Source: Cenococcum geophilum (Eukaryota). From it: a stretch of 64,000 nt of DNA. Shown here piece after piece: positions 1-62,469 of this stretch. The notes under the pieces are model-generated. The model was given only the letters and a program-made list of their open reading frames with translations, was not told the DNA's origin and did not search any database. Position numbers and translations under genes: made by a program. The stretch covers positions 4,154,001 through 4,218,000 of the forward strand of contig CP158635.1 of assembly GCA_050273025.1 (NCBI GenBank), written 5' to 3'. How positions within the stretch are numbered: the first letter of the stretch is position 1; the number at the start of each line of letters is the position of its first letter.

Positions 1-92
1 GATGGTTATTTCTTTATTAGATAATTAGTAGGCGTATTCTACTACTATAGTAGCCGCCTTTACTACTTATTAATTAATTACTATATACTATA

Positions 93-1625
93 CAGAGGCC
101 CCTACTAAAAGTCTTTACTTACCGCCTTTAAGCGTATAGGCCTTTAGTACAATATTAAGCTACTAAAATAATATTATATTTAATATATCTATAAAATAAC
201 TTACTGCCTTAGAGTCTTCCATCATTATAATTAATCTTTTATATCTTCTTTATAGTTATTGTCTCCTTCTAGCCAAATAACCTTACAGATATATATCTTA
301 ATCCTTTTAATACAAGCCTAAATTCGCTATTACTTAAGCTCTACCTAGGCCTTACGCTATGCCTTCTTAGTAGCTATACGCGAAGTTAGTGCTCTTTTCT
401 TAGTAGTAACTCGCTTAAGATATATCTAGTAAGGCTCGAATATATTTAAATTAGGTAAGTTACCTAGCTAAAGAAGTTAAATAATCTTAGCGAGGCTATA
501 AACAACTCCCTACTAATAAGCGTTATATAACGGAGCTTTATCTTCTTATATAATTGTTTAAGGCCTTATTTCTATATACTCCTTTATAAAAGGGAGGAGC
601 TTTAGCTTTAAAACGAATATTTAATAGCAATACTAATCTACTCCTTTACTTTTGCCTTATATAAGCTTTCCGTAATTAACGTCCCATTTCTATTAAGGCT
701 TTATACTAGGAAGATTCCTTATACTTATTCTTCTTATACTAGTATTAAGCTCCTACTACTCCTTTATTACCAGCTCAAGCTCCTTATTAAGGCTTTGTTA
801 ATTCTTATTAGCTGTTTTTCTTTCTTTAATAGTTTTTAGTCGCCAAATATAATAAGGGCCCTTTTTATTATATAAGAAACAGCCTTAAAATATAAACTCT
901 TAATATCCTTTCTATCTTTTATATATACAACTTTTAAGAAAGTGTTTATTTAGTGTCCACTAAACTTAATATCTACCCCTTCTATGGCCAAGAACAACGG
1001 ACATCTTATTACTCTAAATTATATTCTTCCAATCTTCTAATATCTAATCTTGGTATTATATAGCAAACTTAAGTCTTTCCCTCTTTATTTCTTGTATAAG
1101 TCCTAGCTTTCTTATTAGTTTAGTCTTCTTAAGATTAGCAGATCGTAATATTCTCTATATAGTTATACTCCCTATTCCCTACTCCGCAGCAATTTAGTCG
1201 CAAGTCTTCTCTCTTCTATACCAATCTTAACGTACTACCGCAAGAACCCTCCCGTTTATATTATCTATTCGGATAAAAAAAATAGCCAGATTAGGTACTG
1301 TTAATAACGTAAACGTCGCGAAGGACTCTATTAATAACAGGATTAAAGCCACGTTATTCGGCTTTCTTAAAGATATAGTTAAGAGCTCGGGTTTTAACTC
1401 CAGTGTAGCGCCTAATCTCCTTATTTAACGTGATATATACTTTAAGGGCAAGGGTAGTAGCCCGCTGAGCAGTGTTATATTAAACTATAGTATATTAGGT
1501 AGTAATAGATAATAAAAATAAAAGCTCTTATAATAATACACTTATATAAATAGTAATGCGTTAGCAAATTTAATTCTACTAGTAGAATTAAGGCGGTAAG
1601 TAAAGACTTTTAGTAGGGACCTCCG
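93..1625 (-). mobile_element. Tc1/mariner DNA transposon, RIP-inactivated
   Basis: TIRs of about 37 bp (cagaggcccctactaaaagtctttacttaccgcctt / aaggcggtaagtaaagacttttagtagggacctccg) with TA at 91-92 and 1626-1627. De-RIPed minus strand gives Tc1-type motifs QEDKAPSH (~530-550) and WPGNSPDLN.IEP (~435-475). Confidence 0.9.
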
Positions 1626-1899
1626 TAGTTTCCTATATCTTAACTATCTCCTTATACTACCTCTTATAGATTAATATATACCCTATTTCCTCCCTAGGGC
1701 CTATTAAAGGCATAGGGGTATTTATTTATAACTAGCTCTATAATACTAAAGGTGAGCGAGATATATATATCCATTATATAAATAGGGTCCTTAGAGCTAT
1801 AGCCTGTACATATAATCAAGAATATTAATATTTTCGCGTTAGGTTAAGAACAGATAACCTCATTAATTAAGTACACTACTATAATGGTTTGCAATTCTA

Positions 1900-4800
1900 T
1901 TTCCAATAACATAGATCTTATGCAGCCTACTTAATACCCTATTTTTAAAAGTTAGGGCCTAAAAAAGCCACCGCTAGTACCTAAACCACTGCCTCCCTTT
2001 AAGCCTCTTTCTATATTAACGAAAACAAATATAGTAAGCTAAATTTTCTAAACAATATTAATAATAAGGATCCTTAGAGACCTAAGATTAACGGAACTGG
2101 AGCTCTTGCTGCACCCGGCCCAAAAAGACCAAAACCAACCAAAAGAACCCTGAAAAACACCCAGAGAATCCCCCTAAGATGTATGTATCGCAGGGGAGGC
2201 ACATATTAAACGACGGTGGCTCGCACTCGCGCGCGACCGCTAGAACTACGCCCAGCAATGGCCCTCTATAATAAAGACGGGCGAATACCACACCATAAAG
2301 TAGAAATACCTCTATTAAGAAGGCATCTAATAAAATATAAAGCCTATTGGACGCGTCTAGTATCTAGAATTGTGGGGGAGTAACCGTTAGCTATAATAAA
2401 CTAATGCAGCTAGTAGAATAGCTCCGCTAGTCCAGCGAACCTTAGGCGCCCCTCCAGCAAACCCTTAATTAAATCCTCCAACGGCTAAGCAAAATTGAAA
2501 ATAAGTATAACCCCCCCTTACCGGCGAACCGCACCTAGGCCGCTGTAGCTGCGCTTTTATAGTATAGGGAACCCACCCCCCTTAAGTTAATAACCGGGTA
2601 TATAATTATAATATAACCAAATATAGAATAAGTAGAGGGGCTTAGGGGATAATTAGAAATAGAAGTCCTTATAAAGATACGTAAAGAGGTCTATAACGCT
2701 GTTATAGTCTAATACCTTAAGAGCGGAGATATTAGAGTTACCCTAAAGGACTAATAGGCAAAGGAACGAGCCGTAAGGGTAGGGGATAGGCTAGGAGAAC
2801 GTATTGGCATAAAAGTACTCTGCGAGGATTACCTAGTTAAAGTCCTAGCGGTTCCTATAAGCCTTAGGGTAGAAAAGGAACGCTAGGTGGACAATATAGT
2901 AATTATATAGGAGATAGTAAGACAAACGGAACGCCTTATACTAGGACTTAAAATTACCTAAATCTAATAGCTTTAACAGGAAAATATAAATTAAGTATAT
3001 AATAAGAATAATAAGAGGATATAAGGGTCGCTAGAGACTTGCTAGGGAGACGCTAGACGAACGTATGGCTCCCTTATTATTAGTATATATATACTAGGAA
3101 TGCAAAAACTCCTTATCTAAAAAGGAATAATTATAAATGGCCTTATATATAACACAAGGCTCTATAACTACAGACTACGCCTAGAATAATGCTATTGCTG
3201 TGTATAATAGGGATATACCTAATCTATATACGTAGTATAGGTGTGCTGCGGCCATTATACAGGCCCCTATAATATAAGACATTACTTAAATTAAGACTAA
3301 ATAAAATGCGCGAACTGCCACCAAAGCACACATAAGGCATGGGAGAGAGAAGACTATATTAAATATAGGAGACAGAAGGCAAGGGCTTAATAGCTGCGGG
3401 AATAACTATATGCTAGGTTATATAAATGGAAACAATAGGCAATAAGCTAGGGGGATATAGGTGCTTTCCTAGTATTTCCTACCTTTAATACTAGAGGGCT
3501 AGGCTAGCCATCCTAAGCCTTAACGGGCTAGAAGTAACACCGCGCGATATTACTAGACTAATTAGGGACATAAGGGTTACAGGGGATATAAGGGAGAGGA
3601 CGCCCCGTAGGAAGACCCCTATAGACAGCAATAGTAGGCTTAAGACTAGGACAATTAAGAATTAGACTTAATACGGCAAATATAATATTCGCAGCTAACC
3701 CATAAAGGGTATATAGCTAATTAGTAAGAATAGGGGAAGAACTAGTAATAATAACAGATTTAGATATAGAAGCGCTAACAGGAACACAAGATATGGGAAT
3801 GGAAAGCTCTATATAAAATAAGTAGTAACTAGGGTGTAAATACAAAAGATAGAAGCTCTAAATATCCTAGAGAAAGTGGAAACAGAAGAAGTGAGGAATA
3901 AAGGAAAGTTAAAGGACCCTTACCGGGGGTCCGCCACCTATCTATTATATAGTATAACTGCGGTAATATAAACTACTGCCTCGTAAGGCCCCTACTAGAT
4001 AGTCTAGACCTAGAGAAATACTATATCCTTACTATACAAGAGCCGTATTATAATACCTTTATATAATTAATATACTGCCCCTAAGGATTCTAGCTCCTAT
4101 ACGAACCAAAAGCAGCTATATGTGTATGCTTTATAATTAGCAAGGCTATTAGCCTGTCTTTATAGTTATAGTAGGCAGTTAACCTAGATATTGTAGTTAT
4201 AATAATCCAAATATATAGGGGACCGGTATAAATTATTAATGTGTATAACTCTAGGGTTGAAGGGGTCCTATAAATAGAGAATATTATATTGGTAATAAGC
4301 TTACTAGAAACCGAAGGTATAAAGTCTATCCTATTAAGAGATATAAACCTCTACCACCTGCGGTAGGGGGGTATCTATATTACTGTAGACTAATAGTTAG
4401 AGTGCCTACTAAGAGCTATAGATATCTGGGGCCTTAAGCTAGCTACCCCCCTAGAAGCAATTATATAGCAACGAGGCACCGCTAGAAGTATAATTAACCT
4501 TATATTTATGGACAAAGGCCTATACTAGAGACTTAAAAGGTATAACCCTAAAGAAGAATGGGCACTTACCCTAGACTATATCCCTATCCAAATACAGCTA
4601 GACCTAGATACTAAAGCGCAACTAAATAGAAAAAGATATATAATAAGGAAGCTTAAGATAGACAGTTTCCTTAATACAGTCAAATAACAACTCTAAGACC
4701 TAGAAGAAATCTACCTAATACTAAATAAGCGAGGCCTATTAACTACCCCCAAGGAAATCGACTAAAGACTAGAAAGGATCCAGGCAGCAATTAAAAATAG

Positions 4801-9199: not shown

Positions 9200-9920
9200 A
9201 ATTTCTAACGCTAAGTATATATATCTTATTATTCTTTATAAGCGTTTAGTATATAGTCTAATTTACTATAGGGTCTTATATTTAATCTAAGGCTACTTAT
9301 TTTAAGGGTAAACTTACCCTATCTTATTAATATTTAAAAACTTTAGGATAATATGGATCGTATTCGCGCTAAAAAACGGCAAGTATTTAACGCTTAACTA
9401 GACGCTTATACTCGATTAGCCTATCTTAAAAAGGGTTATAAGAAGGTCCGTTTAAAGGAGTAGAAACTCGTTAAGTAAGGTTTAGCAAAGCTTAAGTCTG
9501 ATTTAAAAAAAAACTCTTTTAATAAAGAGGGAAATAACTCTAAGTAGCTTGGTAGCTGCTCCTCTTAGGTCCTACTTAGGTAACTTATTTTTTTTAACGA
9601 TTTTTCCTTATTAATATTACTTAACCTAATTTCTTTTAATACTTCTATACTATTCCTATAACGTTTTTTAGGTTCTATAATAGTTCCTAAGTAGTCTTAT
9701 TAGAGCTTATCTACTTTATTCTATACTATATTTTATTATCTATATCCTTATAACTAACGATCTTTTATACTTACTACTTATCCTTTTTCTATCCTCTATA
9801 TATATTTACTTTATAAACTATTAGTTCTATATCTCTATATACTATATAAGGTAGATCTTTATCTTAGCTAGTAAGTCTAACTTATAACTTTTAAGATCTT
9901 TATTAGGATTTTAAATAGTC
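9200..9920 (-). mobile_element. Fragment of the 3' region of a Gypsy element related to family A
   Basis: Aligns by eye with 11010-11750 and 16065-16800 (chromodomain end plus second exon of the antisense ORF), but is more diverged. Confidence 0.7.
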
Positions 9921-10805
9921 CTATAACTCTATAGGGTTACTTTTATTTAGCTAGAAATAGATTACTTACCTTATATAAGTTTTAACTAAAAAAGACCAGA
10001 AGAACCTTAGACCGTATATAAGAAACTATCCTATAGTAAGGCCTAGCAGTACACTAAATACAAAAAAAAAGCCTAGACGGTAGCCTATAAGAACTTAAAA
10101 AAGGCCTAAAGGTTAATAAAATAGTAGGTAAATAAATACCGTTAAGACCTAACTTTATTCTTAGTAATATACTTTAGATTATAAGAAGAAATTAGAAAAC
10201 TAAACGACCTAGCTATAAGCTAGACTATTAGATAGTAGGACTATATAAGGTCCTTAAGAAGATAGGCAACTTATTATAACGGAACCTTATAGTAAGTACT
10301 ACAATGGGCTCGTTAATGGGCTAGGTGTATAGGTAATATAAATTAAAGTTAACAACGTAATAATAACTAGTAGAGTAGTTGCCTAATAGATTAACTCCAA
10401 TTATATTCTAAAAATCACTATAAGAAAGGAACTATCTAGGTAGGGATTAAGGGTCCTTAAATACACAACCGTACTTCTATAAAATCCTTCTTATACGTAA
10501 TATATATGTTATACGTATTATATATACGTTCCCTTTATACACTATATATACTGCGTATAACGTTATATAACCTTAGCTACTATTCCTTATTATATAGCTC
10601 TACTAGCTCTATTTTAGACCGTGCCTAAATTAACTAATTAGCTTCTTCTAACTCTTCTCTAAGTAGTTATAATATTGTACTTAAAGCGTCCATAACACTA
10701 TCTCCCTTCTCTTTATCTTCGTCCTTAAAGATTTAAAATATCTCTAAGTTATTTACTAGAGGTATAATATCCGTCTAATTAATTTAGTTAATATTATTAC
10801 TTATT

Positions 10806-11490
10806 ATACCTAAAGCTCTTTCTTCTTCGTAGGCGCAACGTCGTGCTCGTACTATTGCTGCAATATTATTTCTTAGTAAGATTATACCATCTCTATATTC
10901 TCGTTATTTAAAAGAGGGGTTAGTTTATATTACGTTAGCAAACCTATCTTCGCGATAACTGTCCTCTTATTTAGAGTGCACTAAAGCAAATATTTATTTG
11001 TCCTATAACGTTTGCTCTATCTCTAATACTAAATATATATAACTTATTACCCTAAATAGTTATCTAGTTCCCTAATTAATTTGTCTTAGGGTTTTATATT
11101 TAATCTGCTACTATATAGCTAAATAGTAAACTGTTTTAGGCTCTTACTAAGCTAGAATGTTCTTATAATATAGAGTAGAAGGCCCTTAAAGCCTATATTA
11201 CGGCATCTACTTAGCTACTCTGTCTTAAGAAGGTTTATAAGAAGGTCCGTTTTAAGGAGTAGAAGCTTATAAAATAAGGTTTGTAGGAACTTAGTAATAA
11301 AAGAATAGATTCTCCTCTAATTAAAAAAGAAATAAATTTAAGTAGTTTAGCAACTGCTCTTCTTAGGTCCCCCTTAGGTAACTTATTCTTTAGTGATCCT
11401 TTTTTATTATTACTGCCTAACCTAATCTCTTCCGATACTTCTATACCTTTCTTATAGCGTTTTTTAAATTCTTTAGTAGTTCCTAGGTAG
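10806..11490 (+). pseudogene. Antisense two-exon ORF of Gypsy A copy 1 (Zn2Cys6-like plus coiled coil), RIP-damaged
   Basis: Homologous to 15856-16540 and 61765-62469 (see findings). The start codon, five of six Cys codons and the splice donor are inferred by reversing RIP. Confidence 0.6.
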
Positions 11491-11934: not shown

Positions 11935-12325
11935 GACATGTAATTTAACCAACTCGATACGCAATTAACCAACTTGACACGCAGTTAACCTACTTAATAT
12001 GTAATTTAACTAACTCGACACGCAGTTGACCTACTTAACATATAATTTAACTAACTTAATACGCAGTTGACCTACTTAATATGTAATTTAACTAACTTAA
12101 TACGCAGTTAACCTACTTAACATGTAATTTAATTAACTTAACACGCAGTTAACCTACTTAATATGCAATTTAACTAACTTAATATATAGTTGACCTACTT
12201 AACATGCAATTTAACTAACTTAATACGCAGTTGACCTACTTAATATGCAATTTAACTAACTTAACACACAGTTGACCTACTTAATATATAATTTAACTAA
12301 CTTAATATACAGTTAACCTACTTAA
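11935..12325. repeat. 41-bp tandem array (two ~20-bp half units), about 9 copies
   Basis: Unit ttaacctacttaatatgtaatttaactaactcgacacgcag with transition variants. Confidence 0.9.
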
Positions 12326-12456
12326 CAACTTTAAAAGCTAACTGTATATTTCTTAACGTGCGATTAAGGTAAAGTTATATACTATATATTTAACTATTAT
12401 ATATAATCTTATACAATCTTATACAATCTCATACAATCTTATAGTCTTATTACTTA

Positions 12457-12760
12457 GAGGCTCTGTATGAGGCTCTACACGAAGCTCTACATGAAGCTCT
12501 GCGTACAGAGGCTCTGCACGAAGCTCTGCGCATAGAGGCTCTGCACAAAGCTCTGCACGAAGCTTCGCATAAGGCTCTACACGAGGCTCTACACGAAGCT
12601 CTGCGTACAGAGGCTCTGCACGAAGCTCTGCACGAAGCTCTGCACGAGGGTCTGCGCGAGGGTCTGCGCGAGGGTCTGCGCGAAGCTCTGCGTACAGAGG
12701 CTCTGCACGAGGCTCTGCGAGAAGCTCTGCGTACAGAGGCTCTACACGAAGCTCTGCATC
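12457..12760. repeat. 12/18-bp tandem array (gaagctctgcac / gaagctctgcgtacagag)
   Basis: Directly visible. Preceded by a few caatcttata 10-mers at ~12404-12443. Confidence 0.9.
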
Positions 12761-12887
12761 GGGTCCCCGCTATATTCCCGATAGCCTCTACACGTGCCTC
12801 TACCCTATGTAGCTACCTTATTTTTTACCCTTCCTTCCTTCTTTATATCCTCCCTACCTAGGGAGGCACCAGAACGGCAGCCAGCAG

Positions 12888-13700
12888 AGGACCGTTGCTA
12901 GAACTAGACGACCGTCGCTAGAACTAGATGACCGTTACCAGAACCAGACGACCATCGCCAGCCAGACGACCGTTACCAGAACTAGACGACCGTTGCCAGA
13001 GCCAGACGATCGTCGCCAGAACCAGATGACCGTCGCTAGCCAGACGACCGTTACCAGAACCAGATGACCGTCGCCAGCCAGACGACCGTTACTAGAACTA
13101 GACGACTGTCGCCAGAACCAGACGACCGTTGTTAGCTAGACGACCGTTACCAGAACTAGACGACCGTTGCCAGAGCTAGACGACCGTCGCTAGAACTAGA
13201 CGACTGTTACTAGAACCAGACGACCGTCGCTAGAACCAGACGACCGTTGCTAGCTAGACGACCGTTACCAGAACCAGACGACCGTTGCTAGAGCCAGACG
13301 ACCGTCGCTAGAACTAGACGACTGTTACCAGAACCAGACGACCGTCGCCAGAACCAGACGACCGTTGTTAGCTAGACGACCGTTACTAGAACCAGACGAC
13401 CGTTGCCAGAGCTAGACGATCGTCGCCAGAACCAGACGACCGTCGCCAGCTAGACGACCGTTACCAGAACTAGACGACCGTCGCCAGCCAGACGACCGTT
13501 ACTAGAACTAGACGACTGTCGCCAGAACCAGACGACCGTCGCCAGCTAGACGACCGTTACCAGAACTAGACGACCGTCGCCAGAACCAGACGACCGTTAC
13601 TAGAACTAGATGACTGTTGCCAGAGCCAGACGACCGTCGCCAGAACTAGACGATTGTCGCCAGAACCAGACAACCCTCGCTAGAGCCAGATGATAACGAC
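12888..13700. repeat. 20/16-bp tandem array (gaaccagacgaccgtcgcca and a 4-bp-shorter variant), about 40 units
   Basis: Directly visible. Variants are mostly C>T or G>A. Confidence 0.92.
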
Positions 13701-13754
13701 TAGCCAGCCAATACTATAAACGATTTGATCGATTGATCGAATTAAGGTAGTATA

Positions 13755-14150
13755 GACAGGTAGGCATAAACAGGTAGATGCTGATGGGTAGGTAGATGTA
13801 GACAGGTAGGTAGATGTAGATAGGTAAGTAGATATAGATAGGCAGGTAGATGCAGATAGGTAAGTAGATGCAGATAGGCAAGCAGATGTAGATAGGTAGG
13901 TAGATGCTGACGGGTAGGTAGATATAGATAGGTAGGCAGATATAGACAAGTAGATATAAATAGGTAGGTAGATGCAAATAGGTAAGCAGATATAGATAGG
14001 TAGGTAGATGCTAACAGGTAGGTAAATATAGATAGGTAGGTAGATGTAGATAGGTAGGCAAATGTAGACAGGTAGATGTAGATAGGTAGGCGATGTAAAT
14101 AGGTAGGCGATGTAGGTAGGTAGGTAAGTTAATAGGTAGATAGGTAGAAG
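13755..14150. repeat. 18-bp purine-rich tandem array (gtagatgtagataggtag)
   Basis: Directly visible. It generates the repetitive ORF-track peptides at 13680-13977. Confidence 0.88.
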
Positions 14151-15322
14151 AGAACCATCGCTGTATTATATTAAATTATCTAAAATAATAATATTTATTT
14201 TACTAGCCTTATAAATAGCTTTAAAATAGCTTTTATTTATTTAAAATATATTATTAGTATAAAAGAGGTAAATATAATTATGGTTGCCAAATGCGCAGAT
14301 TACTGGCAGGTTGCGCGCAGGCTGTGTGTCAAAAAAACACGATATAGGCTAGTCGGTCGAGTTGCCAAATGCCCTCAACTGCGCGCTAATTGCGTCAACC
14401 ACCAACCATTGAGGCCATTGAAAGGGTACTATATTTTGCTGATGTTTCTCTTATACTATTTTTACTAATTCTATAAGGTCTATATAAAAATTTATTAATG
14501 TCTTTATTTTTTCTTTAGCTATACTACTCGTTTTCTTTACTTATTATAATAATAATAATATTCTTAGCTTATATCTATAATTTGCCTTAAATAGTAATAT
14601 GCCTATCCCTTCTTATAGTGTTGTATTATATATAAACTATATAACTAGTAATAATAATACCCAATTATTTTATGTATAATTAATATAGTATTTTAAATAC
14701 TGCTCTAGTATCTAATTTAATCTTTCTATTTAACCATCTATCTGCGGATAATATGCGGTAGAAGTTACTGCTCTTACTCCTTATTCCGCTAAAAATACCT
14801 CCTAAAATACTGCTATAAATCTTAAATCTCTATTTAATATAATCTTGCTTAGTGCTCCATATTTTATAAATACTTCTTTAATATAGATTCTAGCGATATC
14901 TTCTACTAATATTTCTTCTATATATGCTATAAAGTATCCCTACTTTATAAGCTTGTCTATTATTACTAAGATCGTATTATAATCTTATCTAGTAATAGGG
15001 TCTTTTAACTTAGGTAACTTAATAATAAAGTCCTATAATATAACCTTTTATAGTCTCTCTAGTATTTTAATAAGTTGTAGCCCTCTATATAGCTTATATC
15101 TTATTAGTTTATTTCTTTAGTAATCTAAATATTTTTTTATAACTTTCCGCGCTAAGCCCTAGATTCTATCAATAATATACTCTTTCTAGAGTCTTAATAC
15201 TAAGCCTATAGCTCTATTATGTCCTTAAGTTATTCCCTTATAGAAATCTTCTATAAAATACTCTACTATACTTCTTAGGATATACTATACTTCTCTATAT
15301 TTATATAGTATTTCTTCTCCTA

Positions 15323-18300
15323 TATAACGGAACCTTATAGTAAGAACTACGGTGGGCTCGTTATTAGGCTAGGTGTGTAGGAAATGTAAGTACAAAAGTC
15401 AACAACGTAATAATAACTAGTGGAGTAGTTGCCTAATAGATTAACTCTAATTATATTCTAAGAATCACTATAAGGAAGGAACTATCTAGGTAGGGACTAA
15501 GGGTCCTTAAATACACAACCGTACTCCTATAAAATCCTTCTTATATATAATATACGTCTTATATATAAGGTACGTAAGTTCCTCTTATTCCTCTCGTTTA
15601 ATACGTAGCATATTATATAACCTTGGTTACTATTCCTCGTCATATAGTTCTATCGGCTCTATCCTAAACTGTGCCTAAATTAACCAACTAGCTTCTTCCG
15701 TCTCTTCTCCAAGTAGTCGTAATATTGTACTTAAAGCGTCCGTAACACTATCTCCCTCCTCTTTATCTTTATCCTTAAAGATTTAAAACATCTCTAAGTT
15801 ATTTATTAAAGGTGTAATATCCATCTAATTAATTTAGTTAATATTATTGCTTATTATACCTAAAGCAATTTCTTCTTTACACGCCCAACGTCGTGCTCGC
15901 ACTATTGCTACAATACTATCTCTTAGTAAGATTATACCGTCTCCATATTCTCGTTATTTAAAAGAGGGGTTAGTTTATATTACGTTGGCGAACCTATCTT
16001 TACAATAACCGTCCTCTTACTTAGAGTGTACTAAAGCGAATATTTGTTCGTCCTATGACGTTCGCTTTACTTCTAATGCTAAATATACGCGACCTATTAC
16101 TCTTAATAGTCGTCTAGTTCCCTAATTAATTTATCTTAGGGTCTTATATTTAATTTACTGCTATACAGCTAGATGGTAAACTATTATAAGCCCTTACTAA
16201 GTTAGAACGTTCCCGTGATGTAGAACAGAAGGCCCTAAATACTTAAATTGCGGCATCTACTCGTCTGCTTTGTCTTAAGAAGGTTCGTAAGAAGGTTTAT
16301 TCTAAGGAGTAGAAACTTATAAAATAAGGTTTATAGGAACTAGGTAATAAAAGAACGGACTTTCCTCTAATAGAGAAGGAAATAGATCTAAGTAGTTCGG
16401 CAACTGCTCTTCTTAGGTCCCCCTTAGGTGACTTATTCTTTAGCAATTCTTCTTTATTAATACTACCTAACCTAATCTCTTTTAATACTCCTATACCTTT
16501 CCTATAGCGTTCTTTAAATTCTCTAGTAGCTCCTAGGTAGTCTTAATATAGCCTATCTACTTAACCTCGTACTATATTTCGTTGTTAATATCCTTATAAT
16601 TAATGATCTTTAATACTTACTATTTATCTTCTTCTTATCCTCTATACGTGTCTACTTTATAAACCGGTGGCTTAATATTCCTATATACTAGCTTTAGCAT
16701 TATAATATACTATATAGGGTAGATCTTTATTTTAGCTAGTAGGTTTAACTTAAATATAACCAGTAAAATCCTCTACGTAATTTTAAAAGGTCCTAGTTTA
16801 ACATAGTCTAACTTCTTACTTAGTTATTAACTCTTGAAATTTTTGTGTAGTAACTATACTTTATCTCCCTCCTTAAGATCTAGTCCCTTAAATCTCTTAG
16901 CATTATAGTACCTTTTTATTCTTTCTTATACTTTCTTTACTAATTCTATAAGGTCTATATAAAGATTCATTAATGTCTTTATTCTTTCTTTAGCTATACT
17001 ACTTATTTTCTTTACTTACCGTAGTAACAATAATGTTCTTGGCTTATATCCGTAATTTGCCTTAAATAGTAATATGCCTATTCCTTCTTAAGGTGTTACA
17101 TTGTATATAAACTATATAACTAGTAATAGTAATACCCAATTATTCTATACATAATTAACATAATGCTTTAGATACTACTCTAGCGTCTAATTTAATCTTT
17201 CTATTTAACCGTCTATCTGCGGATGGTATATAGTAGAAGTTACTACTTAAACTCCTTACTTTGCTAAGAACACTTCCTAAAATACTACTATAAATCTTAG
17301 GTCTCTATCCGATATAATCTTACTTAGTACTCCATATCTTATAAACACTTCTTTAATGTAGATTCTAGTAACATCTTCCGCTAAGATTTCTTCTATATAT
17401 GCTATAAAGTATCCCCACTTTATAAGCTTATCTATTATTACTAAGATCGCGTTATAATCTTATCCAGTAATAGGATCTTTTAATTTTAGTAACTTAATAA
17501 TAAAGTCCTATAATATAACCTCCCATAGTCTTTTTAGTATTTTAATAGGTTATAGCCCTCTATATAGCTTATGCCTTATTAGTTTATTCCTTTAGCAATC
17601 TAAATATTCTTTTATAACTTTTCTAGCTATTCTCTAAATTCCGTTAATAATATACTCCTCCTAAAGTCTCAACACTAAGCCCATAGCTCCATTATGTCCT
17701 TAAGTTAGTCCCTTATAGAAGTCTTCCATAAACTACTCTACTATACTTCTTAGGATATACTTCGCTTCTTAATTTTCGTATATATCCGTCTATAAATCTT
17801 CTAGCTATACTTCTAGAATTCTTTATACCTAAAAGCTTTCTAGTATCTCGTAGACTTTCTCTAGTTTATCGTCTTCTTAAGTTGCTGCAATTCTTAGATA
17901 ATTATACCTAATTAATCTGTCTATATCCTTTCGTAATAAAGCCCCCAATAGCTTCTCCTTATTTTATAGTTTAGCTTTACGGCTTAGAGCATCTACCTTC
18001 GTATTATCTGTACCTTTAGTATACTAAATCTTAAAATAGTATTCTATAAGCATCTCTGCCCATCTAACCTATCTTTAGTTAAGTTCCTTTATTATTAGAA
18101 ATCCTATTAGGTTCTTATAATCTATCTTAACTATAAATAGTTTTTCTATACCTTATAAGAATACTCTCTATTTTTTTAATACTGCAACTATACCTAATAA
18201 CTCCTTATTATAGATATTATAGTTTAACTCTAGTGGTGTCATCTTTTAACTATAGTATACCACTAGGTACTATCCGTCTTAATGCCTTTATATAAAGCAT

Positions 18301-21300
18301 ACCCCTAGTATATAGTCTAATATATTCGTCTCTACAACTATCTCTAGTCCTAGTTAATAGATCTTAAGAACTGGCTCCTAGGTAAACAACTCTTTAACTT
18401 TTTTAAAGAGTTCTTTTTACTCCTCTCCCTATACCCATAGTTCTTCTTTCTTTATTAACCTCATAAGTGGCTTAATATCCTTTAACCACTGCGCTATAAA
18501 CCTTCTATAGTAATTGCAAAACCCTAGGAACAATCTTAACTATATAACGTTCTCTGGTTCCTACCAATTTACTATAGCCTTAATCTTCTTTAGATCTATA
18601 CTAAGTTGGCCTAGTTTAATAATAAATTTAATAAAATCAGTCTTCCTAGTAAAGAACTCGCATTTCTTAATTACTACTAGCATCTGTTCTTCTTATAGTC
18701 TCTTTAAAACCCATTTAACGTATTCCCCGTATTCTTCCTTAGTTATTAAGTAGATAATAATATCGTTAAGATATACCATAACAAATTTATCTAAGTATTA
18801 TCCTAACACATTATTAATACGCTTTTAAAACGTTGCTAGTATGTTTATAAGCCCGAATTATATAACTAATAGCTTATATAGTCCTTCCTTTAACCTAAAG
18901 GCTGCCTTTTATTTATTGCCTTTCTTAATCCTAATTTAATGGTACGCCCATCTTAGATCTATCTTTATAAAGATTTACGCATTACCTATCCTATTTTAGA
19001 TTTTACTAATTAAGGGTAAAGGATACCTATCCTTCCTAGTAATGCTGTTTAACTATCTATAATTAATATACAGCCTTAGTTTACCATTTTTCTTTAGTAT
19101 AAACAGTACTAGATAACCCGCTAATAACTGCGATGGTCTAATATATCCCTTTTATAGATTTTCCTAAATAAACTCTTTTAATACTTTACCTTCTTCTTTG
19201 GTAAGCTTATAGATTAGAAAGAACTTTAGACTTATTCCTAGTTCTAACTCTATCTTATAGTCCTATGCTATATATTCTAATAGCTTCTTACTTTCTAGTA
19301 ACTATAGTTTCTTACCATACTTATAGTATCTCTTTAGTATATAACTTAGTCCTTTTTCTATTTCTTTATAAGTTGCTCCTACTTAGTACCATACCATCTT
19401 AGCTTATTATTACATCTTACGGCGTTAAGTATTTCTAATATTAACCTAACCTATAATCCAATTAATCCTTAGATTATATTCCTATAACTAAGGTATACTT
19501 AATACTGCCTTATCCTGTCCTAATAGTAGGATATTAAAAGACATCTTAATTTATCTCCCTTTAATAGTTATCTAAATAGGTCCTATTTTAAGATTAATAA
19601 TCCCTCCTCCATAGGTTATTAGATCTCCTGAAATTATAACTAATAGGTAAAATTGCTCCTTTTATCTATAAGGTAGTCCTATTCTCTTAACTGCTGCTAG
19701 TAAGATATAGTTTCGCGTTACTCCACTATCTATTAGCGCTTTAAACTGCTAATCTTACTAATTAACTTATAAATTTAGGTGTCGTCCTTAAATTCCTTTA
19801 AGGGTCTAAGGCTCTACTACTAGCTCCCTCTAGTCCTATAGGCCTCTACTTTTCCCAACTATTAGCTGCTTAATCCTAGTGCACTTAGCTTACTCTTTAG
19901 CCAATGCCTAGTTCGCTTTTTATCTTTAATATACTATAAATACGTGTTTTCTAGGCATTCCCACCACTATTGTCCGTCTAAGCATTCTTCCGTAAGGAAT
20001 CTTTCTAGTTAAAGTACTAAACTTCCTTCCTCTTAGACCTCTGCTAGATGCCATCTATACATATATTTAGCATTCTTATACTATTACTTATTTATTATCC
20101 AGTACATCCTTATAAGGTATTTCCGATTCTTTTCCTTTAGATTCTTATATATTTTATATATATTATCCACGCACATAATCTATAATAACGTATAGTGTAC
20201 TAGGTGCTTTAGGTTAACTCTTAGCTTATCTTTATCCTTAAGTTTAAATCTTTATTATGCTAATCTAAACGTTATAACTTTATTTACAGGTACTAAGATG
20301 CGCCTCTTACTTCTCTAGTCCTCTAAACGTTCCTCTAGATCCTTTAATATTATAATTAAGGCTCCTTTAATATATGTTATAGCCTTCTCTATAATCGGGT
20401 GGTCCTAAATAACTTTTTTATCCAACTATATATAGAAATCTTCCTACTTATTATTATGCCTTTGCCTATACCACTTTTAGTACAGCTGCTAGAGTGTATA
20501 CGGTCTGTCCGTAAGGAAGTATCTTCTTATTACTATATTATAACAGCCCTTTATATATTATTCCTCGAACCTAGTTAAAATCCTTAAATCCTCTTTATCT
20601 TCCAATTTAGTAAGCTACTTAGCTCTTAGTATGCCTACTCTCAGTCTATTAGTAATTCTTTATACTAGTGCTCTGTCCTTTATACGTCCTAATATACTAG
20701 ATCTCTTATCTAGTTTCTGTTCTTACTATGCGATAATTCTTTACCTAAACTCTTTTATAGTTTCTTTTAGTTTGCGCCTTACGCTCTAATCCTTAAAGTT
20801 ATCTTACTTCTTAATTCTAGTATTAATTTTTTAATCTTTAATCCGAACACTTCGTTTAACTAGTAAATCCTCTAGGTCTATATATTCGTCTCCTAGTCTA
20901 ATTGCTATTTATACTATAGATTCTCTAATCTATAAAGAAGCCCCTTACCTCTTATCTATAGGTGTCCTAATTTATACTCCGAATTCTTAACCCCTTAGGT
21001 TCTTTAATCCTAAGCTTGCTTCTAACTTAAGCTTAGCTCTAGCCTTAGTCCAACTAAGCTTACTTAGTATTCTTATCTTATCTTAAGAGTCTTAAATCTC
21101 ACTTATCTCGTCTTAAGAGTCTTATACCTATAGGAACTTCTATCCCAAGCTTATTTATATATCTTTAAACTAAGCTACTACTCTACTCCATTGGTTATCG
21201 TCCGTTATAGGTCCTTAAGCTTGCCTTATCTCATTTTAAGAATCTTAGTTGTCTCTTATCTCGCTATAAGAATCTTAAGCCTTTGGCCTTTTGCCTTTAT

Positions 21301-23273
21301 TAAGTGCTGAAGTAGTTTGCTATCCTACTTCTCTTACGTCTTATAAAGCGATAGATATTATATCTAGTAGGGTTTTAATCCCTACTAATATTCCTTATTC
21401 TATAATGGAATTATCCTCTACCTCTAGTATAATATCTTTAAGGTCTACTCGCTTCTAATAAGCGGCCCTTATTACCTTATCGTTATAGAATATTTCGCCT
21501 AGGTCGAATTTATCGTCCTTAATATCCAATCTGCGAACTGGTTTATTAGTTCCTTTATATTCTATAGGTGCTAGCTCTTATAGCTAATAGCTTACGCCAT
21601 ACTTAGCATCCTTATAAATTTAGTATACGTTATTATAACAAAACGCAAAACTTTTAATTAAACATTCTTTTATTCCTCGCAGCATATTATCGTCCCTTTA
21701 TACGTGTATATCGTCTGCTAGTCTTATACTCTTTACTATGTAGTAACTCTACCCACTTCTATAGTCTCTAATATAATAACCCTGTTTTCCGCAATTTATA
21801 TAAGCTCCTTCTTTAAACCATTTCTCTTGCTATAGAGTCCGCCTAAATGTCTTCTACTAATAAGATCCCTAATTTAGCCTCTACTTCTTAGACCTTTAAT
21901 TACCTAATCCTTATCCTCTGGGTTTCTATAGTTTGCTCCATCTCTTATAGGCTTCTTTAGTGCCACTTAGGTCCATTAGCTCTGCGCCATACTATAGTTT
22001 CTAACTTAGCTTTTATTGTTGCGTACTCTGCGCCTTATATAACTATAAAACTCTATCCTAGCCTCTCTTAGCCTGTTCCCTTTAGTAGATCTAATTATTA
22101 ATCTTAATTACCTAATCTATTAGTTCCCTTAGGGTATCCATATCTTCCATTAGGATAATCGCGTCCTAGACTTTAGCCTTAAGTCCCTATTTATACTATA
22201 CCATAAGCGCCCTATTATTCCACTCTACTTATATTGCTAGTATCTAAAACTATATTATATACTTAATTGCTAAAGTTCATTATACGAGGTTCTAAAGTTT
22301 TCTTTTTACTATAGTTATTCCTTCCAGGTCTCTAAATATCTGCGTAAGTCGTTCTATAAATCCTTCCTAACTTAAGAATATAAATCGCACGTCTTAGTTA
22401 GTAGTCGTCATTCCGTTTACCTATATCTCTATAAGGTAAGGTTTAAACCACTTAAGTGCTTTTCCTAATAAGAATAGTCCTACATAGGCTATCCGATCCA
22501 TAGGCGTAGGTAACTTTACTCCTTCTTATAAGACCTTAAAGTGTATCTGCATAAGGAATCCTTTAAGCTTTAACCTCTCTTCTATAAATCTCTTAATTAA
22601 TAGTAGCTTAATCTTTGCTGCTCCTATCCCATTAAATCTTTCTTCCAATATTGTATTATTAGCTATTAGCTAGTTAACTATTTCCTATAGCTGTCTAACC
22701 GTTATAGGTTACTGTAAGTTAGTATCTACTATACTAGTATCACCTCCTGTCCTTAAAGTAGTTGCTACTATTAATGGCGTTATAGTAGCTGCTTTTAGTA
22801 GCATGTTGTTTAACTTCTTATATTAATACTATAACTAAGTAGTAATTATATAACGGAACCTTATAGCAAGAACTACGGTAGGCTCGTTATTAGGCTAAGT
22901 ATATAGGAAATATAAGTATAAAAGTTAACAACGTAATAATAACTAGTGGAGTAGTTGCCCAACAGATTAACTCTAATTATATTCTAAGAATTACTACAAG
23001 GAAGGAACTATCTAGGTAGAGACTAAGGGTCTTTAAATACACAACCGTACTCCTATAAAATCCTTCTTATATATAATATACGTCTTATACATAAGGTATG
23101 TAAGTTCCTCTCGTTCCTCTCGTTTAATATGTAGCATATTATATAACCTCGGTTACTATTCCTCGTCATATAGTTCTATCGGCTCCATCCTAGACCATGC
23201 CTAAATCAACCAACTAGCTTCTTCCGTCTCTTCTCCAAGTAGTTATAACATCGTACTTAAAGCGTCCGTAACA
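15323..23273 (-). mobile_element. Ty3/Gypsy chromovirus family A, copy 2 (complete, 7.95 kb, nested in copy 1)
   Basis: LTRs at 15323-15747 and 22849-23273, TSD TCCTA (15318-15322, 23274-23278). gag starts ~22805, zinc knuckle ~21770-21810, protease DSG ~19725, RT YLDD-like ~18765, then RNase H, integrase and chromodomain ~16560. Confidence 0.95.
15856..16540 (+). pseudogene. Antisense two-exon ORF of Gypsy A copy 2 (inferred intron 16085-16139)
   Basis: Best-preserved copy. De-RIPed reading: MPKAISSSHAQRRARTIAAILSLGEIMPSPCSRCSKEGLVCIALADPSSRQPSSCSECTKANIRSSCDV...EW|SRIRS...ELERSRDVEQKAL...RLLRLEKVREKV... Confidence 0.65.
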
Positions 23274-26200
23274 TCCTAGATATTCTAACTATTCTTTTAG
23301 CTATATTTTAAAGATCCTTTATACCTAAAAGCTTTCTAATAACTTATAAACTCTACCTAGTTCCTCTTAAGTTGCTATAATTTTTGGATAATTATATCTA
23401 ATTAGTCCATCTATATCTTTTCGCAGTAAAGCCCCTAATGGCTTCTCGTTATTTTATAGTTTAGCTTTTTAACTTAAAGCATCTACTCTCGTATTATCTA
23501 TACCCTTAGTATACTAAATCTTAAAATAGTATTCTATAAGTATCTCTACCTATCTAACCTATCTTTAATTAAGTTCCTTTATTATTAGAAATCCTATTAG
23601 GTTCTTATAGTCCATCTTAACTATAAATAGTTTCTTTATGCCTTATAAGAATGCTCTCTATTTCTTTAGTACTATAACTATACCTAATAACTCCTTATTG
23701 TAGATATTATAGTTTAACTCTAGTAGTATTATCTTCTAACTATAGTATGCTACTAGGTGCTATCTATTTTAATATTTTTATATAAAGTATACCCCTAGTA
23801 TATAATCTAATACATCTATCTCTATAACCGTCTCTAGTCCTAGTTAATAGATCTTAAAAACTAGCTCCTAGGTAAATAACTCTTTAACCTTTTTAAACAA
23901 CCCTTTCTATTCCTCTCCCTATACCTATAGTTCTTCTTTCTTTATTAGTCGCGTAAATAGTTTAATATCCTTTAACTATTGCGCTATAAACCTTCTATAG
24001 TAATTGCAAAACCCTAAAAAAAATCTTAACTATATAATATTCTCTAGTTCTTACCAATTTACTATAGCCTTAATCTTTTTTAAATCTATACTAAGTTAGC
24101 TTAGTTTAATAATAAATCCAATAAAATTAATCTTTTTTAGTAAAGAACTCGCATTTTTTAATTGCTACTAGCATCTATTCTTCTTATAGTCTCTTTAAAA
24201 CCTATTTAATGTATTCTCCGTACTCTTTCTTAGTTATTAAGTAGATAATAATATTTTTAAGGTATACTATAACAAATTCGTCTAAATATTCTCCTAATAT
24301 ATTATTAATACGCTTCTGGAACGTTACTAGTACGTTTATAAGCCTAAATTATATAACTAATAGTTTATATAGTCTTTCCTTTAACCTAAAGGCTGCCTTC
24401 TATTTATTACCTTCCTTAATCCTAATCTAATGGTATACCTATCTCAGATCTATCTTTATAAAGATTTGCGCGTTACTTATCCTATCTTAGATTTTACTAA
24501 TTAAGGGTAAAGGATACCTATCCTTCCTAGTAATACTATTTAACTATCTATAGTTAATACACAGCCTTAGTTTACTATTTTTCTTTAATATAAATAGTAC
24601 TAGATAACCTGCTAATAACTATAATGGTCTAATATATCCCTTCTATAAGTTTTCCTAGATAAACTCTTTTAATGCTCTACCTTTTTCTTTAGTAAGCTTA
24701 TAGATTAGAAAGAACCTTAAACTTATTCCTAGTTTTAATTCTATCTTATAATCCTATACTATATACTCTAATAGTTTTTTACTTTCTAGTAACTATAGTT
24801 TCTTACTATACTTATAGTATCTCTTTAGTATATAGCTTAATCCTTTTTCCGTTTCCTTATAGGTTGCTCCTACTTAGTACTATACTAACTTAGATTATTG
24901 TCGCATTTTGCGTTATTAAGTATCCCTAATATTAACCTAACCTATAATCTAATTAATCTTTAGATTATATTCTTATAACTAGGGCATTCCTAATACTGCC
25001 TTATTATTCCCTAATGGTAATATATTAAAAGATATCTTAATTTATTTTCCTTTAATAGTTAACTAAATAGGTCCTATTTTAAGATTGATAATACCTCCTC
25101 TATAGGCTATTAGATCCCCTAAAATTATTACTAATAGGTAAGGGTACTCCTTTTTTCTATGTAGTAACCCTATTTTTTAACTGCTATTAATAAGATATAG
25201 TTCCTTATTGCTCTACAATCTATTAATACCTTAAACTATTAATCTTGCCACTTAATTTATAAATTTAAGTGTTATCCTTAAATTTCTTTAAGGGTTTAAG
25301 GCTTTACTACTAGTTCCCTCTAGTCCTATAGGCCTCTACTTTTCCTAACTATTAGCTACTTAATCCTGTTTATACTTAGTCCACTTTTAGCCAATACTTA
25401 ATTTGCTTTTTATCTTTAATATACTATAGATACATATTTTCTAGGCATTTCCACCACTATTATCCGTCTAGGCATTCTTCTATAAGGAATCTTCCTAGCT
25501 AAAGTATTAAGTCCCCTTAGCTTTACACTTCTACTAGGTGCTAACTATATATATACTTAGCGTTTCTATATTTCGCCTCGTCCGGTACCTAATATATCCT
25601 TACTAGGTACTTCTAGTTTTTATTTTTAGGTGCTCTATATATATTATACGCATTATCTATATATATAATCTATACCAACGTATAATATACCTAGTGTCTT
25701 AGGTTAACTCTTAACTTGTTTTTATCTTTAAGTTTAAACCTTTCTCGTATTAATCTAAGTGTTATAACTTCGTTTATAGGTATTAAGATTTATCTTTTAC
25801 TTCTCTAGTCCTCTAATTGCTTCTTTAGATCTTTTAATATTATAATTAAGGCTCCTTTAATATAACTTATAGCCTTTTCTGTAATTAGGTGGTCTTAGAC
25901 AACTTTTTTGTTTAACTATATATAGAAATCTTCCCACTCGTCGTTATGTTGTTGCCTATACCACTTTTAGTACAGCCCCTTAAGTATATATAGCTTATCT
26001 GTAAGGAAGTATCTTCTTATTACTATATTATAACAGCCCTTTATATATTATTCTTTAAACCTAGTTAAAATCTCTAGATCCTCTTCTTACTCCAGTTTAA
26101 TAAGCTACTTAGCTCTTAGTATACCTACTCTAGGCCTATTAGTAATTCTTTATACGGGTGCTCTGTCCCTTATATATCCTAGTATACTAAATCTCTTATC

Positions 26201-32630: not shown

Positions 32631-33785
32631 TCAGAAAACCAAACCGCCACCTAAAGAGTTAATTCCTGTCTCGCGTGTGTTCAAACAATGAGAATCGACT
32701 TACCATCCACCACAATATCTGCAGCATTGATATAGCTCCCTGCGCCAGAGCAAAGCAGTACTAATGGCCCAGTCAATTCCTGAGGCACGCCCATTCTTCC
32801 CATCGGGTTGCGGGAAGTCCATATGTTGCGGGCTTTTTCAAGTCCATGACCCTTATTTAGTATCGTATCCATATATCCTGGGCTGATAGTGTTCACCCGG
32901 ATACCGTAGCGCGCCCATTCAGCCGCAAGAGAGTTTTTGAGGCTTAACAGTGCGGATTTAGATACGTTGTAGGCCACTTGAGGCTGAGGAAAGTTTACAC
33001 GATGACCGGAAATTGCTGATAGATTGTCAGCAAATGTAACTAAAGCAAGAATAGGAAGCTGAAATGACGGACATGCTATGAACACTATGGAACCTCCGGT
33101 CTCCTGAGGTATCATTTGTCTGCACAATGGGTAGTTATTATTACAGTAACCAACAGAGGCAAAGGAGGGCGCACTTCGCAACTGCTTGGGCGCAGAGAAA
33201 GGACCCCGTGCAATTGATATCCATCGTGGACTTCCATTCCTCTAGGGCCATATCAGTTGCATGCGTACAGCCAACCACTCCAGCGAAGCAGCATAGTATA
33301 TCTACACTCCCAAGATGCTTGGCGGTTTCGGCAACGGCAGCATTGATACTTTCAGAATCTCTAACGTCTACCTGCTTCGTTATGATCTGGGCAGAAGGGA
33401 ATTCCGCTATTAGACTTGTAATGGGACCAGCAGCTTGTTGAGGATTGATATCGAGTAGAGCCAGCCCAGAGAGGCCATGTTCAAGGAGCGCACGAGCGCA
33501 TTCGAGTGCGAGAGTTCCGGCTCCACCAGTAACTGTGACGAGGTATTAGTAATTGGGGAGCCCCAAACTAGGACTACAATGTTCCGGGATATACCATCAC
33601 ATTTATCACGTACTAATTGCGTTCCCCTCGACCGCAAATCTATGCTGAGCCCTGCCCTCGGCATCCAGATAGTGTGGCGGTGGTGGGGGAGGGGCAGTAA
33701 AAGACGATGAGGAGCCGTCAGAGAGCTGCATTTGAGGGAGCTGCCTGTTGACAAGGGCATCGCGCTCGGAGGCGTTGTCAGGCAT
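32631..33785 (-). CDS. Short-chain dehydrogenase/reductase, D-arabinitol 2-dehydrogenase/sorbose reductase-like; 5 exons
   Basis: ATG at 33785, four GT-AG introns, Rossmann motif ITGGAGTLA, SISGHRVNFPQPQVAYNVSK (catalytic YxxxK), GIRVNTISPGYMDT, and a last exon GGGLVF-TGA ending at 32631. Normal base composition. Confidence 0.92.
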
Positions 33786-40505: not shown

Positions 40506-40630
40506 GGATAGAGTTATGGGAGCTGCGTAGGATTCCTGACGCGCCTGACGAAGGATGACGCGCTGCTGTACCCATGAAGCGAAACCCTATCCCGGCCCGG
40601 ACCTTCTACCAAAGTTTTAGGCCACCACTA

Positions 40631-61764: not shown

Positions 61765-62469
61765 ACCTAGGAGCTATTAGAAAATTTAAAAAACGCTATA
61801 GGAAAGGTACAGGAGTATTAAAAGAAATTAGGTTAGGCAGTATTAATAAAAAAGGATTGCTAAAAAATAAGTTACCTAAGGGGGACCTAAGAAGAGTAGT
61901 TGCCGAACTACTTAAATCTATTTCCTTCTCGGTTAGAAGAGAATTTATTCTTTTATTACTAAGCTCTTATAGACCTTATTCTATAAGCTTCTATTTTTTT
62001 AAAATAGACCTTTTTATAAGCCTTTTTAAGACGAATTAACCGAGCAGACGCCGCTAAACGAGATTTAAGGGCCTGTTGCTAAGTATTAGCAGCCTCCCGT
62101 TTAGCGTCCTAAAAATAACGCAACTCTGCTAGAATAACAGATAGTTTATTATCTAGCCGCGTAGCAGTAGATTAAATATAAAACCCTAAGACAAATTAAC
62201 TAGGGAACTAGACGACTGTTAAGAGTAATAGGTTATGTATATTTAGTATTAGAGATAAAACAAACGTTATAGGACGAATAAATATTCGCTTTAGTGCACT
62301 TTAAGTAAGAGGACGGTTATTGCGAAGATGGGTTTACTAACGTAATACTAACTAACTTCTTTTTTAAATAGCGAGAATATGGAGATAGTATAATCTCACT
62401 AAGGGATAATATTATAGCAATAGTGCGAATACAACGAGCAGTTAAAGAAGAAGAAATTGCTTTAGGTAT
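61765..62469 (-). pseudogene. Antisense two-exon ORF of Gypsy A copy 3
   Basis: Homologous to 15856-16540, with a 21-nt in-frame insertion in the coiled-coil part. Confidence 0.6.

Follow-up and report, generated by a model that had tools for sequence, protein, structure and literature searches.

Relics of a probable spliced antisense accessory gene at the 3' end of Ty3/Gypsy chromoviruses in Cenococcum geophilum

What, if anything, is encoded by the roughly 0.7 kb that separate the chromodomain-coding end of pol from the 3' long terminal repeat (LTR) in Gypsy retrotransposons of the fungus Cenococcum geophilum, and on which strand? The question was raised by positions 15856–16540 of a 64,000-nucleotide stretch (assembly GCA_050273025.1, contig CP158635.1, forward-strand positions 4,154,001 to 4,218,000; hereafter the window, numbered from its first letter). 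A prediction made from the sequence alone had read there, on the strand opposite to gag-pol, a two-exon gene for a protein resembling Gal4-family Zn(II)2Cys6 regulators, obscured by repeat-induced point mutation (RIP). We read the segment as a dead copy of a genuine antisense accessory gene, spliced and under selection and of the type named brtn in Boty-like Gypsy elements, and put the probability of this reading at roughly 85–90%. A clade of fungal Ty3/Gypsy chromoviruses demonstrably carries such a two-exon gene, which lies just inside the 3' LTR and runs on the strand opposite to gag-pol.

The window is a fungal region marked by RIP and rich in AT, with a GC content of ~0.27–0.33 over most of its length. 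When 15856–16540 (copy B) was compared with the whole window by blastn, it matched 10806–11490 (copy A) at 84.2% over 685 positions, 62469–61763 on the other strand (copy C) at 79.7% over 711, and a diverged partial copy (copy D) at 9424–9694 (75.8%) and 9203–9295 (73.4%); the three ~0.7-kb copies and their diverged relative thus lie where they had been predicted. Ratios of transitions to transversions between copies were 104:14, 115:31 and 116:27, and TpA/ApT was 1.63 in the element as compared to 0.60 in a nearby open reading frame; together, the transition excess and the raised TpA/ApT are the signature of RIP. The gene and its copies are located as follows.

15856–16084, plus strand: exon 1 of the dead antisense gene, copy B; start codon now ATA (was ATG), five of six Cys codons now TAY
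16085–16139, plus strand: 55-nt phase-1 intron of copy B; donor AT (was GT), acceptor AG, place and length as in the intact relatives L002 and L004
16140–16507, plus strand: exon 2 of copy B; long-helix region and acidic/Ser/Pro tail, seven internal stops, terminal TAG at 16505–16507
10806–11457, plus strand: copy A; exon 1 10806–11034, intron 11035–11089, exon 2 11090–11457, in a truncated element with its LTR at 10275–10700
61796–62469, minus strand: copy C; exon 1 62469–62241, intron 62240–62186, exon 2 62185–61796, LTR 62576–63002
9203–9694, plus strand: diverged partial copy D; end of exon 1, intron, and exon 2 with frame breaks

The plus-strand frame of copy B that opens at 15856 translates through 'PYSRYLKEGLVY...SSYLECTKANICSSYDV'. 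Its six cysteine positions read Y,Y,Y,Y,C,Y, so only the fifth cysteine survives, as had been claimed; five of the six tyrosine codons of exon 1 stand at cysteine positions, and the sixth is split by the splice junction. Beyond the 55-nt gap, with the frame shifted by one, a charged helix-like stretch and a Ser/Pro/hydrophobic tail run to the TAG at 16505–16507, and the gene therefore ends there rather than at 16540, where its end had first been placed. Copy C has AGT at the third cysteine position, retaining a G lost in the other copies, along with an in-frame 21-nt insertion and a 1-nt frameshift. None of seven raw translations from the window matched a relevant Pfam family. All three window copies are dead and unable to make protein, and expression of the window's own copies is not expected.

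The state of the gene before RIP was seen in its natural relatives. A first profile, made from the window's own exon-2 translations and searched against 1.84 billion representative proteins, matched 55 of them at E ≤ 1e-3 (15 at E ≤ 1e-10); a second, made from 21 natural sequences, matched 212 at E ≤ 0.01. The 120 matches listed of these 212 all came from JGI or ENA assemblies. Source names among the 120 were 'hypothetical protein' and one ATPase-subunit label, and none had a precomputed Pfam domain or a meaningful name, which is why the gene family is almost unannotated. One of the relatives, P0068 (152 amino acids), begins with M and carries the motif C-x2-C-x6-C-x13-C-x2-C-x8-C; P0069 (239 amino acids as called) also begins with M, has the same six-cysteine spacing, and ends in '...TPVPFP'. 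P0074 and P0076, close and partly RIPed relatives of the window copy, have an M start and cysteine where the window has tyrosine. The nearest clusters in the ESM Atlas were unnamed Ascomycota at 0.85–0.91, which we treat as a lead only.

A scan of metagenome contigs matched 601 candidate stretches, the best 80 of which were kept; relatives were encoded by 588 of the 601. Most of these copies were RIPed (GC 0.31–0.33, TpA/ApT ~1.6), and two, L002 and L004, were not (GC 0.47–0.48, TpA/ApT 0.71). The L002 gene starts with ATG at 4034, with exon 1 to 4274, an intron at 4275–4329, and exon 2 to 4718 (209 amino acids); that of L004 starts with ATG at 258, with exon 1 to 498, an intron at 499–553, and exon 2 to 906 (197 amino acids). 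Both introns are 55 nt long, run from GT to AG, and occupy the position of window 16085–16139, and both genes encode C-x2-C-x6-C-x13-C-x2-C-x8-C. The cysteine spacing that had been reconstructed by reversing RIP was thus found exactly, in L002 and L004 as in P0068 and P0069. Both genes sit in elements with protease (PR), reverse transcriptase (RT), RNase H, integrase (IN), SH3 and Chromo domains on the opposite strand. L004 is a whole element, with minus-strand Pfam matches to Retrotrans_gag, zf-CCHC, protease, RVT_1 (6e-35), RNase H, integrase, SH3 and Chromo. The two 7.5-kb contigs have identical 126–127 bases at both ends, and each is therefore an un-RIPed element whose assembly is circular or collapsed onto one LTR.

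The 89 copies that were aligned comprised L002, which served as reference, the three of the window, and 85 from other loci; 14 of 103 grouped matches were left out because they covered <600 of the 1001 reference bases. In this alignment the six cysteine columns held only TGY or TAY, save for the one AGT of copy C and 1–2 gapped rows per column. TGY and TAY numbered 32 and 56 in column 1, and 82 and 6 in column 5. The start column read ATG in 22 copies and ATA in 64; the intron donor was GT in 19 and AT in 68, the acceptor was AG in 85, and the intron measured 55 nt in 84 of the 89. Internal stops were absent from two copies only, L002 and L004. A de-RIP consensus was derived from 86 RIPed copies, the window copies included and L002, L004 and L001 left out. 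It has an M start, cysteines at 35, 38, 45, 59, 62 and 71, GT..AG splice sites, a stop-free exon 1, and an exon 2 with only its terminal stop. ATG and GT in L002, L004 and the consensus uphold the proposal that ATA and AT in the window are their RIPed remains, and the place and length proposed for the intron hold as well; the 'ctaat' branch site was not present in the intact relatives.

Selection was found to act on the plus strand. Between L002 and L004, the ratio of nonsynonymous to synonymous substitution rates (dN/dS, NG86 method) on the plus strand was 0.062 for exon 1 and 0.227 for exon 2, both far from 1, as compared to 0.082 over 925 codons of pol proper. Sites at which the two differ silently on the plus strand, with an amino-acid change in the pol frame, outnumbered the reverse kind by 9:0 in exon 1 and 37:13 in exon 2. 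Across the 89 copies we used transversion diversity, since RIP makes no transversions. It peaked at plus-strand codon position 3 both in exon 1 (0.114 vs 0.037 and 0.025) and in exon 2 (0.122 vs 0.061 and 0.061); the exon-2 peak falls at the middle position of pol-frame codons, and the absolute phase of the peak moves by one from exon 1 to exon 2, the shift expected from an intron of 55 nt. These wobble peaks, with the phase shift between them, identify the two-exon plus-strand gene as the selected unit. Purifying selection acts on the plus-strand protein and, in the cysteine region, is as strong as on pol. Together with the intact genes of 197–209 amino acids, this establishes that the antisense gene of ~200 amino acids is real.

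A trace of splicing is the junction '..AEW/SRV..' (the slash marks the joint), which occurs in six of 170 database proteins (P0011, P0022, P0068, P0069, P0075 and P0077). The junction codon of all six consists of the T of exon 1 joined to the GG of exon 2; the proteins are un-RIPed and lie on contigs of 921–1423 nt. Another 92 of the 170 run from exon 1 into the intron, and four from the intron into exon 2. Gene callers for such assemblies do not splice, and the six contigs that bear the junction are therefore without the intron. One further contig, found in runs X1 and X2 (apparently one data set), joins 15569 (a canonical donor, AAG/GTACGT, inside the LTR) to the exon-2 acceptor at 16140 and bypasses exon 1. 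If this joint is real, there is a plus-strand transcript that begins in the LTR and uses an alternative first exon; this one metatranscriptome contig hints at transcription of the gene from the LTR. An intron can outlast retrotransposition here because it is antisense to the genomic RNA.

The element that carries copy B was delimited by comparing the window with itself, which revealed LTRs of 427 bp at 10275–10700, 15321–15749, 22847–23273, 28202–28628, 50234–50663 and 62576–63002. Element B occupies 15321–23273, with gag-pol on the minus strand and two LTRs that are 93.2% identical. In a Pfam scan of its translated minus strand, with stops read as X, RVT_1 (E 1.5e-16) and RT_RNaseH (E 1.8e-17) were matched, as were, more weakly, Ty3_capsid, an aspartyl protease and SH3_Tf2-1. 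With its LTRs, gag, the order PR-RT-RNase H-IN and a C-terminal chromodomain, the host element is a Ty3/Gypsy chromovirus. Its parts are these.

15321–15749, minus strand: 3' LTR of element B; 93.2% identical to 22847–23273, with a RIPed CGG-N12-CCG counterpart and a donor-like GTACGT at 15570
15750–15780, minus strand: polypurine tract adjoining the 3' LTR; purine-rich run up to the LTR edge
16470–16634, minus strand: end of pol, coding for the chromodomain; overlapped by the final codons of the antisense gene, with the Chromo domain (Pfam) and the overlap seen in intact L004
16470–22846, minus strand: RIPed gag-pol of element B; capsid, protease, RT, RNase H, integrase, SH3 and chromodomain (Pfam, stops as X)
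22847–23273, minus strand: 5' LTR of element B, from the self-comparison

The 0.7-kb segment lies between the minus-strand chromodomain-coding end on one side and the polypurine tract and 3' LTR (15321–15749) on the other. Tandem to element B, at 23274–28628, lies a further internal region that is only partial and shares its LTR; it has no counterpart of 15750–17796 and hence no antisense gene. Element C (50234–63002) is full length and is broken by another repeat family at 54637–57802, which is 86.5% identical to 4492–7651 in inverted orientation.

The place first given to the gene, between pol and the 3' LTR, was correct as to its position from chromodomain to LTR; the free spacer that it implied was not found, and in the intact elements the pol frame runs through the gene. 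In L004 this frame (29..4294, 1421 amino acids) has no stop after the chromodomain (amino acids 1092–1140) and stays open for ~280 further codons, through the whole antisense gene, its intron and the polypurine tract into the LTR; L002 is likewise open. The tail stretch covers L004:29–906 and L002:3784–4718, with its window counterpart at 15750–16507 on the minus strand. Such openness is improbable by chance: the pol frame was stop-free in 0.7% of 5000 trials when the plus-strand protein was resampled synonymously, and in 0.4% when the upstream region and intron were shuffled. The dN/dS of the pol frame was 0.73 over exon 2, nearly neutral, and 0.35 near the frame end (L002 vs L004), and a Pfam scan of the tail gave no domain. 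Four stops remain in the pol frame of the de-RIP consensus of RIPed copies, at least one of them (column 4447) a TAA without a CAA precursor, and in the decayed L001 the tail is open piecewise. The open pol tail holds, then, for two related intact elements and piecewise for L001, not for the whole family. In these intact elements the pol frame is kept open across the gene, although its amino-acid sequence there is nearly unconstrained; a possible reason is that an open tail spares the genomic RNA a long 3' untranslated region.

In L004 the last ten codons of the antisense gene face the final helix of the chromodomain. The conserved antisense C-terminus '..SSDTPVPFP' (L004:877–906) faces this same last helix, and it may be pol, not the antisense protein, that accounts for its conservation. 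At the other end of the tail, a CGG-N12-CCG motif was observed at the same LTR position in L002 (3832–3849) and L004 (56–73 and 7434–7451), and in RIPed form in the window at ~15654–15671; its position matches that of the conserved 'MEP(V/I)EP' with which the pol tail ends.

The intact protein of 197–209 amino acids has a short basic N-terminus, a six-cysteine (Cys6) module, a helix of ~75 residues, an acidic Ser/Pro tail, and a hydrophobic end motif. Exon 1 is mildly basic (11 K+R vs 6 D+E); the tail is acidic and rich in Ser/Thr/Pro. P0068 was modelled with AlphaFold2 at its full 152 amino acids from an alignment of 21 sequences, with a mean predicted local distance difference test (pLDDT) of 80.4. 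The model consists mainly of a helix at 77–151, with pLDDT >95 from residue 81; in the cysteine region, at pLDDT 54–73, it places a helix at 35–40, a strand at 44–46, and a helix at 58–67. This helix and the acidic Ser/Thr/Pro tail agree with what had been predicted for exon 2. A wide search with VIA-align returned only generic long helices (Z ≤ 7.5) over residues 70–152. Zn2Cys6 clusters have the spacing C-x2-C-x6-C-x5-12-C-x2-C-x6-8-C, and basic residues between their second and third cysteines contact DNA. Against the Zn_clus profile (PF00172, gathering cut-off 21 bits), a partial alignment covered the first C-x2-C-x6-C, with matches in 5 of 21 members at E ≤ 1 and in 1 of 25 further members at E ≤ 0.1 (14.1 bits). 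Against DUF3716 (PF12511, cut-off 22 bits), the alignment spanned profile positions 3–59 of 59, with matches in 3 of 21 members and 0 of 25 further members; an ESM Atlas cluster bearing DUF3716 scored 0.77, again a lead only. The architecture resembles that of a small zinc-cluster factor, and lies outside both PF00172 and PF12511 by their cut-offs.

Several observations weigh against reading the locus as a spliced gene, of brtn type, for a zinc-cluster-like protein. As to splicing, the six junction-bearing contigs, which we infer to be transcripts, are known from protein sequence only. Among public RNA runs aligned to positions 15321–17000, no joint was found at 16085–16139, and metatranscriptome contigs span the intron unspliced; the 48 raw reads of run X21 over these positions were every one <95% alike. 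As to the cluster, the residues between Cys2 and Cys3 are AKEGLV, SKEGLV or AEKKLV, mostly with one Lys. The best Zn_clus score was 17.0 bits, over profile positions 18–37 of 39 only, and DUF3716 scored 20.1 (L004), 18.6 (L002) and 15.4 bits (P0072), all below cut-off. Two family-profile searches of PDB sequences returned no Zn2Cys6 chain (six unrelated weak matches in the first, none in the second). Folded alone, the N-terminal cysteine region reached a pLDDT of 52.9, too poor for fold comparison, and Foldseek with the 152-residue model found nothing at E ≤ 0.001, Gal4 (3coq_A) appearing only at E 9.4. A crude single-register heptad test on the helix was not significant (P 0.16 and 0.34). Finally, the likeness to brtn is one of position and description. 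Of the Gal4-like cluster in the original prediction, the spacing and order of the cysteines stand; its place in the family is not supported, given 17.0 vs 21 bits for PF00172, no PDB chain, and a poor N-terminal model.

How the protein might act can be proposed tentatively. It would hold zinc via its six cysteines, pair through the long helix, and bind nucleic acid, most likely the element's own LTR DNA; bound there, it would act like a miniature zinc-cluster factor and adjust how strongly the element is transcribed in the sense or antisense direction. We rate this mechanism, a zinc-holding, helix-paired, DNA-binding dimer acting on the LTR, at somewhat under even odds. Alternatively, the Cys6 module may be a different, DUF3716-like zinc module that binds protein or RNA (integrase/chromodomain, Gag, or the genomic RNA), with a role in particle assembly or targeting and not in transcription. 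Its near end-to-end profile alignment (3–59 of 59, 18.6–20.1 bits), as compared to half of the Zn_clus profile, speaks for this alternative, as do a Cys3–Cys4 loop of 13 residues, one over the Zn2Cys6 range of 5–12, and the few basic residues between Cys2 and Cys3. DUF3716 proteins are also carried by a fungal transposon, REP9 of Zymoseptoria (PMC8232023). Yet DUF3716 too stays under its 22-bit cut-off and was matched in only 3 of 21 and 0 of 25 members, its own function is unknown, and the order of cluster, linker, long helix and acidic tail is, as such proteins are generally described, that of zinc-cluster factors; we regard the alternative as possible, on balance doubtful. A wider synthesis would join the two: a spliced antisense gene inside a selection-kept open pol frame that reaches into the 3' LTR, whose Cys6 module belongs to a wider, undescribed class of DUF3716-like, transposon-borne zinc domains common to accessory genes of fungal Gypsy, Copia and class II elements and acting as DNA-binding regulators, perhaps on the CGG-N12-CCG of the LTR. 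Taken as a whole, this synthesis is unlikely.

The gene might act mainly as RNA, its antisense transcript forming double-stranded RNA with the genomic RNA and limiting copy number or feeding small-RNA pathways, with the protein secondary. The transcript would be fully complementary to the pol tail and the chromodomain-coding end, and retrotransposons of Botrytis are sources of small RNA (PMC8365987); however, purifying selection acts on the amino acids (dN/dS 0.06 and 0.23), and cysteines, ATG, splice sites and reading frame are kept across diverged subfamilies, which makes an RNA role as the main one improbable.

A still weaker proposal is that the segment is only a sense-strand C-terminal tail of Pol, its antisense reading a by-product. 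The pol frame of L002 and L004 is indeed open across the region to a stop within the LTR, at chance probabilities of ~0.007 and 0.004; nevertheless, the excess of differences silent on the plus strand, the diversity peak of exon 2 at the middle of pol-frame codons, a wobble phase that fits the two-exon plus-strand model, and the pol-frame dN/dS of 0.73 over exon 2 all contradict it, as do the six retained cysteines and the existence of spliced forms. We reject it as very improbable. A chance reading of RIPed DNA is likewise rejected.

Other features of the window lie outside the gene and its elements. A GC-rich tandem-repeat block with units of ~60–120 bp at 80–87% identity stands between retrotransposon fragments at 11945–14165. 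Two un-RIPed islands were observed on the minus strand: a short-chain dehydrogenase fragment at 32681–33241 (adh_short_C2, E 1.4e-25) and, at 38709–40586, a 625-residue Ser/Pro/acidic open frame to which no Pfam family matched.

For this genome, the finding of a spliced antisense gene amounts to ordinary annotation, the window copies being relics. At the level of the family the gene is abundant (588 of 601 metagenome stretches, 212 database proteins), and the open pol frame through the whole gene in intact elements is a new detail. A transposon-borne, zinc-cluster-like factor under an open pol frame would offer a tractable system for studying how fungal elements regulate or target themselves, and the intact L002 and L004 sequences provide material for a direct test.

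The closest known system is already in print. According to PMC8365987, PMC7264820 and PMC4227169, brtn (Zhao et al. 2011, Virology 417:248) is a further, antisense gene found in the Boty-like Gypsy elements of Botrytis cinerea and Sclerotinia sclerotiorum; the same papers call the function of such antisense open reading frames unknown. As portrayed there, brtn resembles the gene described here: both are additional genes read against gag-pol at the 3' end of an ascomycete Gypsy element with a chromodomain. A Monilinia transcript reported as similar both to a truncated Pol with chromodomain and to BRTN (PMC5987419) fits the overlap of gene and pol seen here. The elements differ in size, BcGypsy1 (Boty) copies being ~6.4 kb in the Porquier supplement table, as compared to ~7.4–8 kb here; the Porquier supplements do not name 'brtn', and the name BRTN is carried by no match among the 120 listed of 212 proteins.

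As to the encoded protein, two comparisons can be made. With Gal4-type Zn(II)2Cys6 factors, as generally known, it has in common six N-terminal cysteines spaced 2-6-n-2-n, a short linker, a long helix and an acidic tail; it differs in its sub-cut-off score over half the profile, its 13-residue loop, almost no basic residues between Cys2 and Cys3, the absence of a sequence match to solved clusters, and its location inside a retrotransposon. Literature searches, within the collection consulted, found nothing relevant on a zinc-cluster gene in a fungal retrotransposon. With DUF3716 proteins it has in common a near full-length, sub-threshold alignment to the cysteine region (15.4–20.1 bits, below the 22-bit cut-off, in 3 of the 46 members scanned) and the standing of a transposon accessory gene; PMC8232023 places DUF3716 in two genes, REP9-1 and REP9-2, of a class II transposon of Zymoseptoria tritici, and thus in another element class.

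Beyond fungi, the plant elements Grande, RIRE2, Retand and PvRetro13 carry antisense extra open reading frames between pol and the 3' LTR, alike in position and orientation and with no assigned function. We know of no sequence relation between our gene and either these plant frames or HBZ of human T-cell leukaemia virus type 1 (HTLV-1). HBZ, a basic leucine-zipper (bZIP) factor, is the product of a spliced antisense gene expressed from the 3' LTR of a mammalian retrovirus. By analogy, the logic of the fungal gene may be the same: an antisense, spliced, dimerising regulator produced from the 3' LTR.

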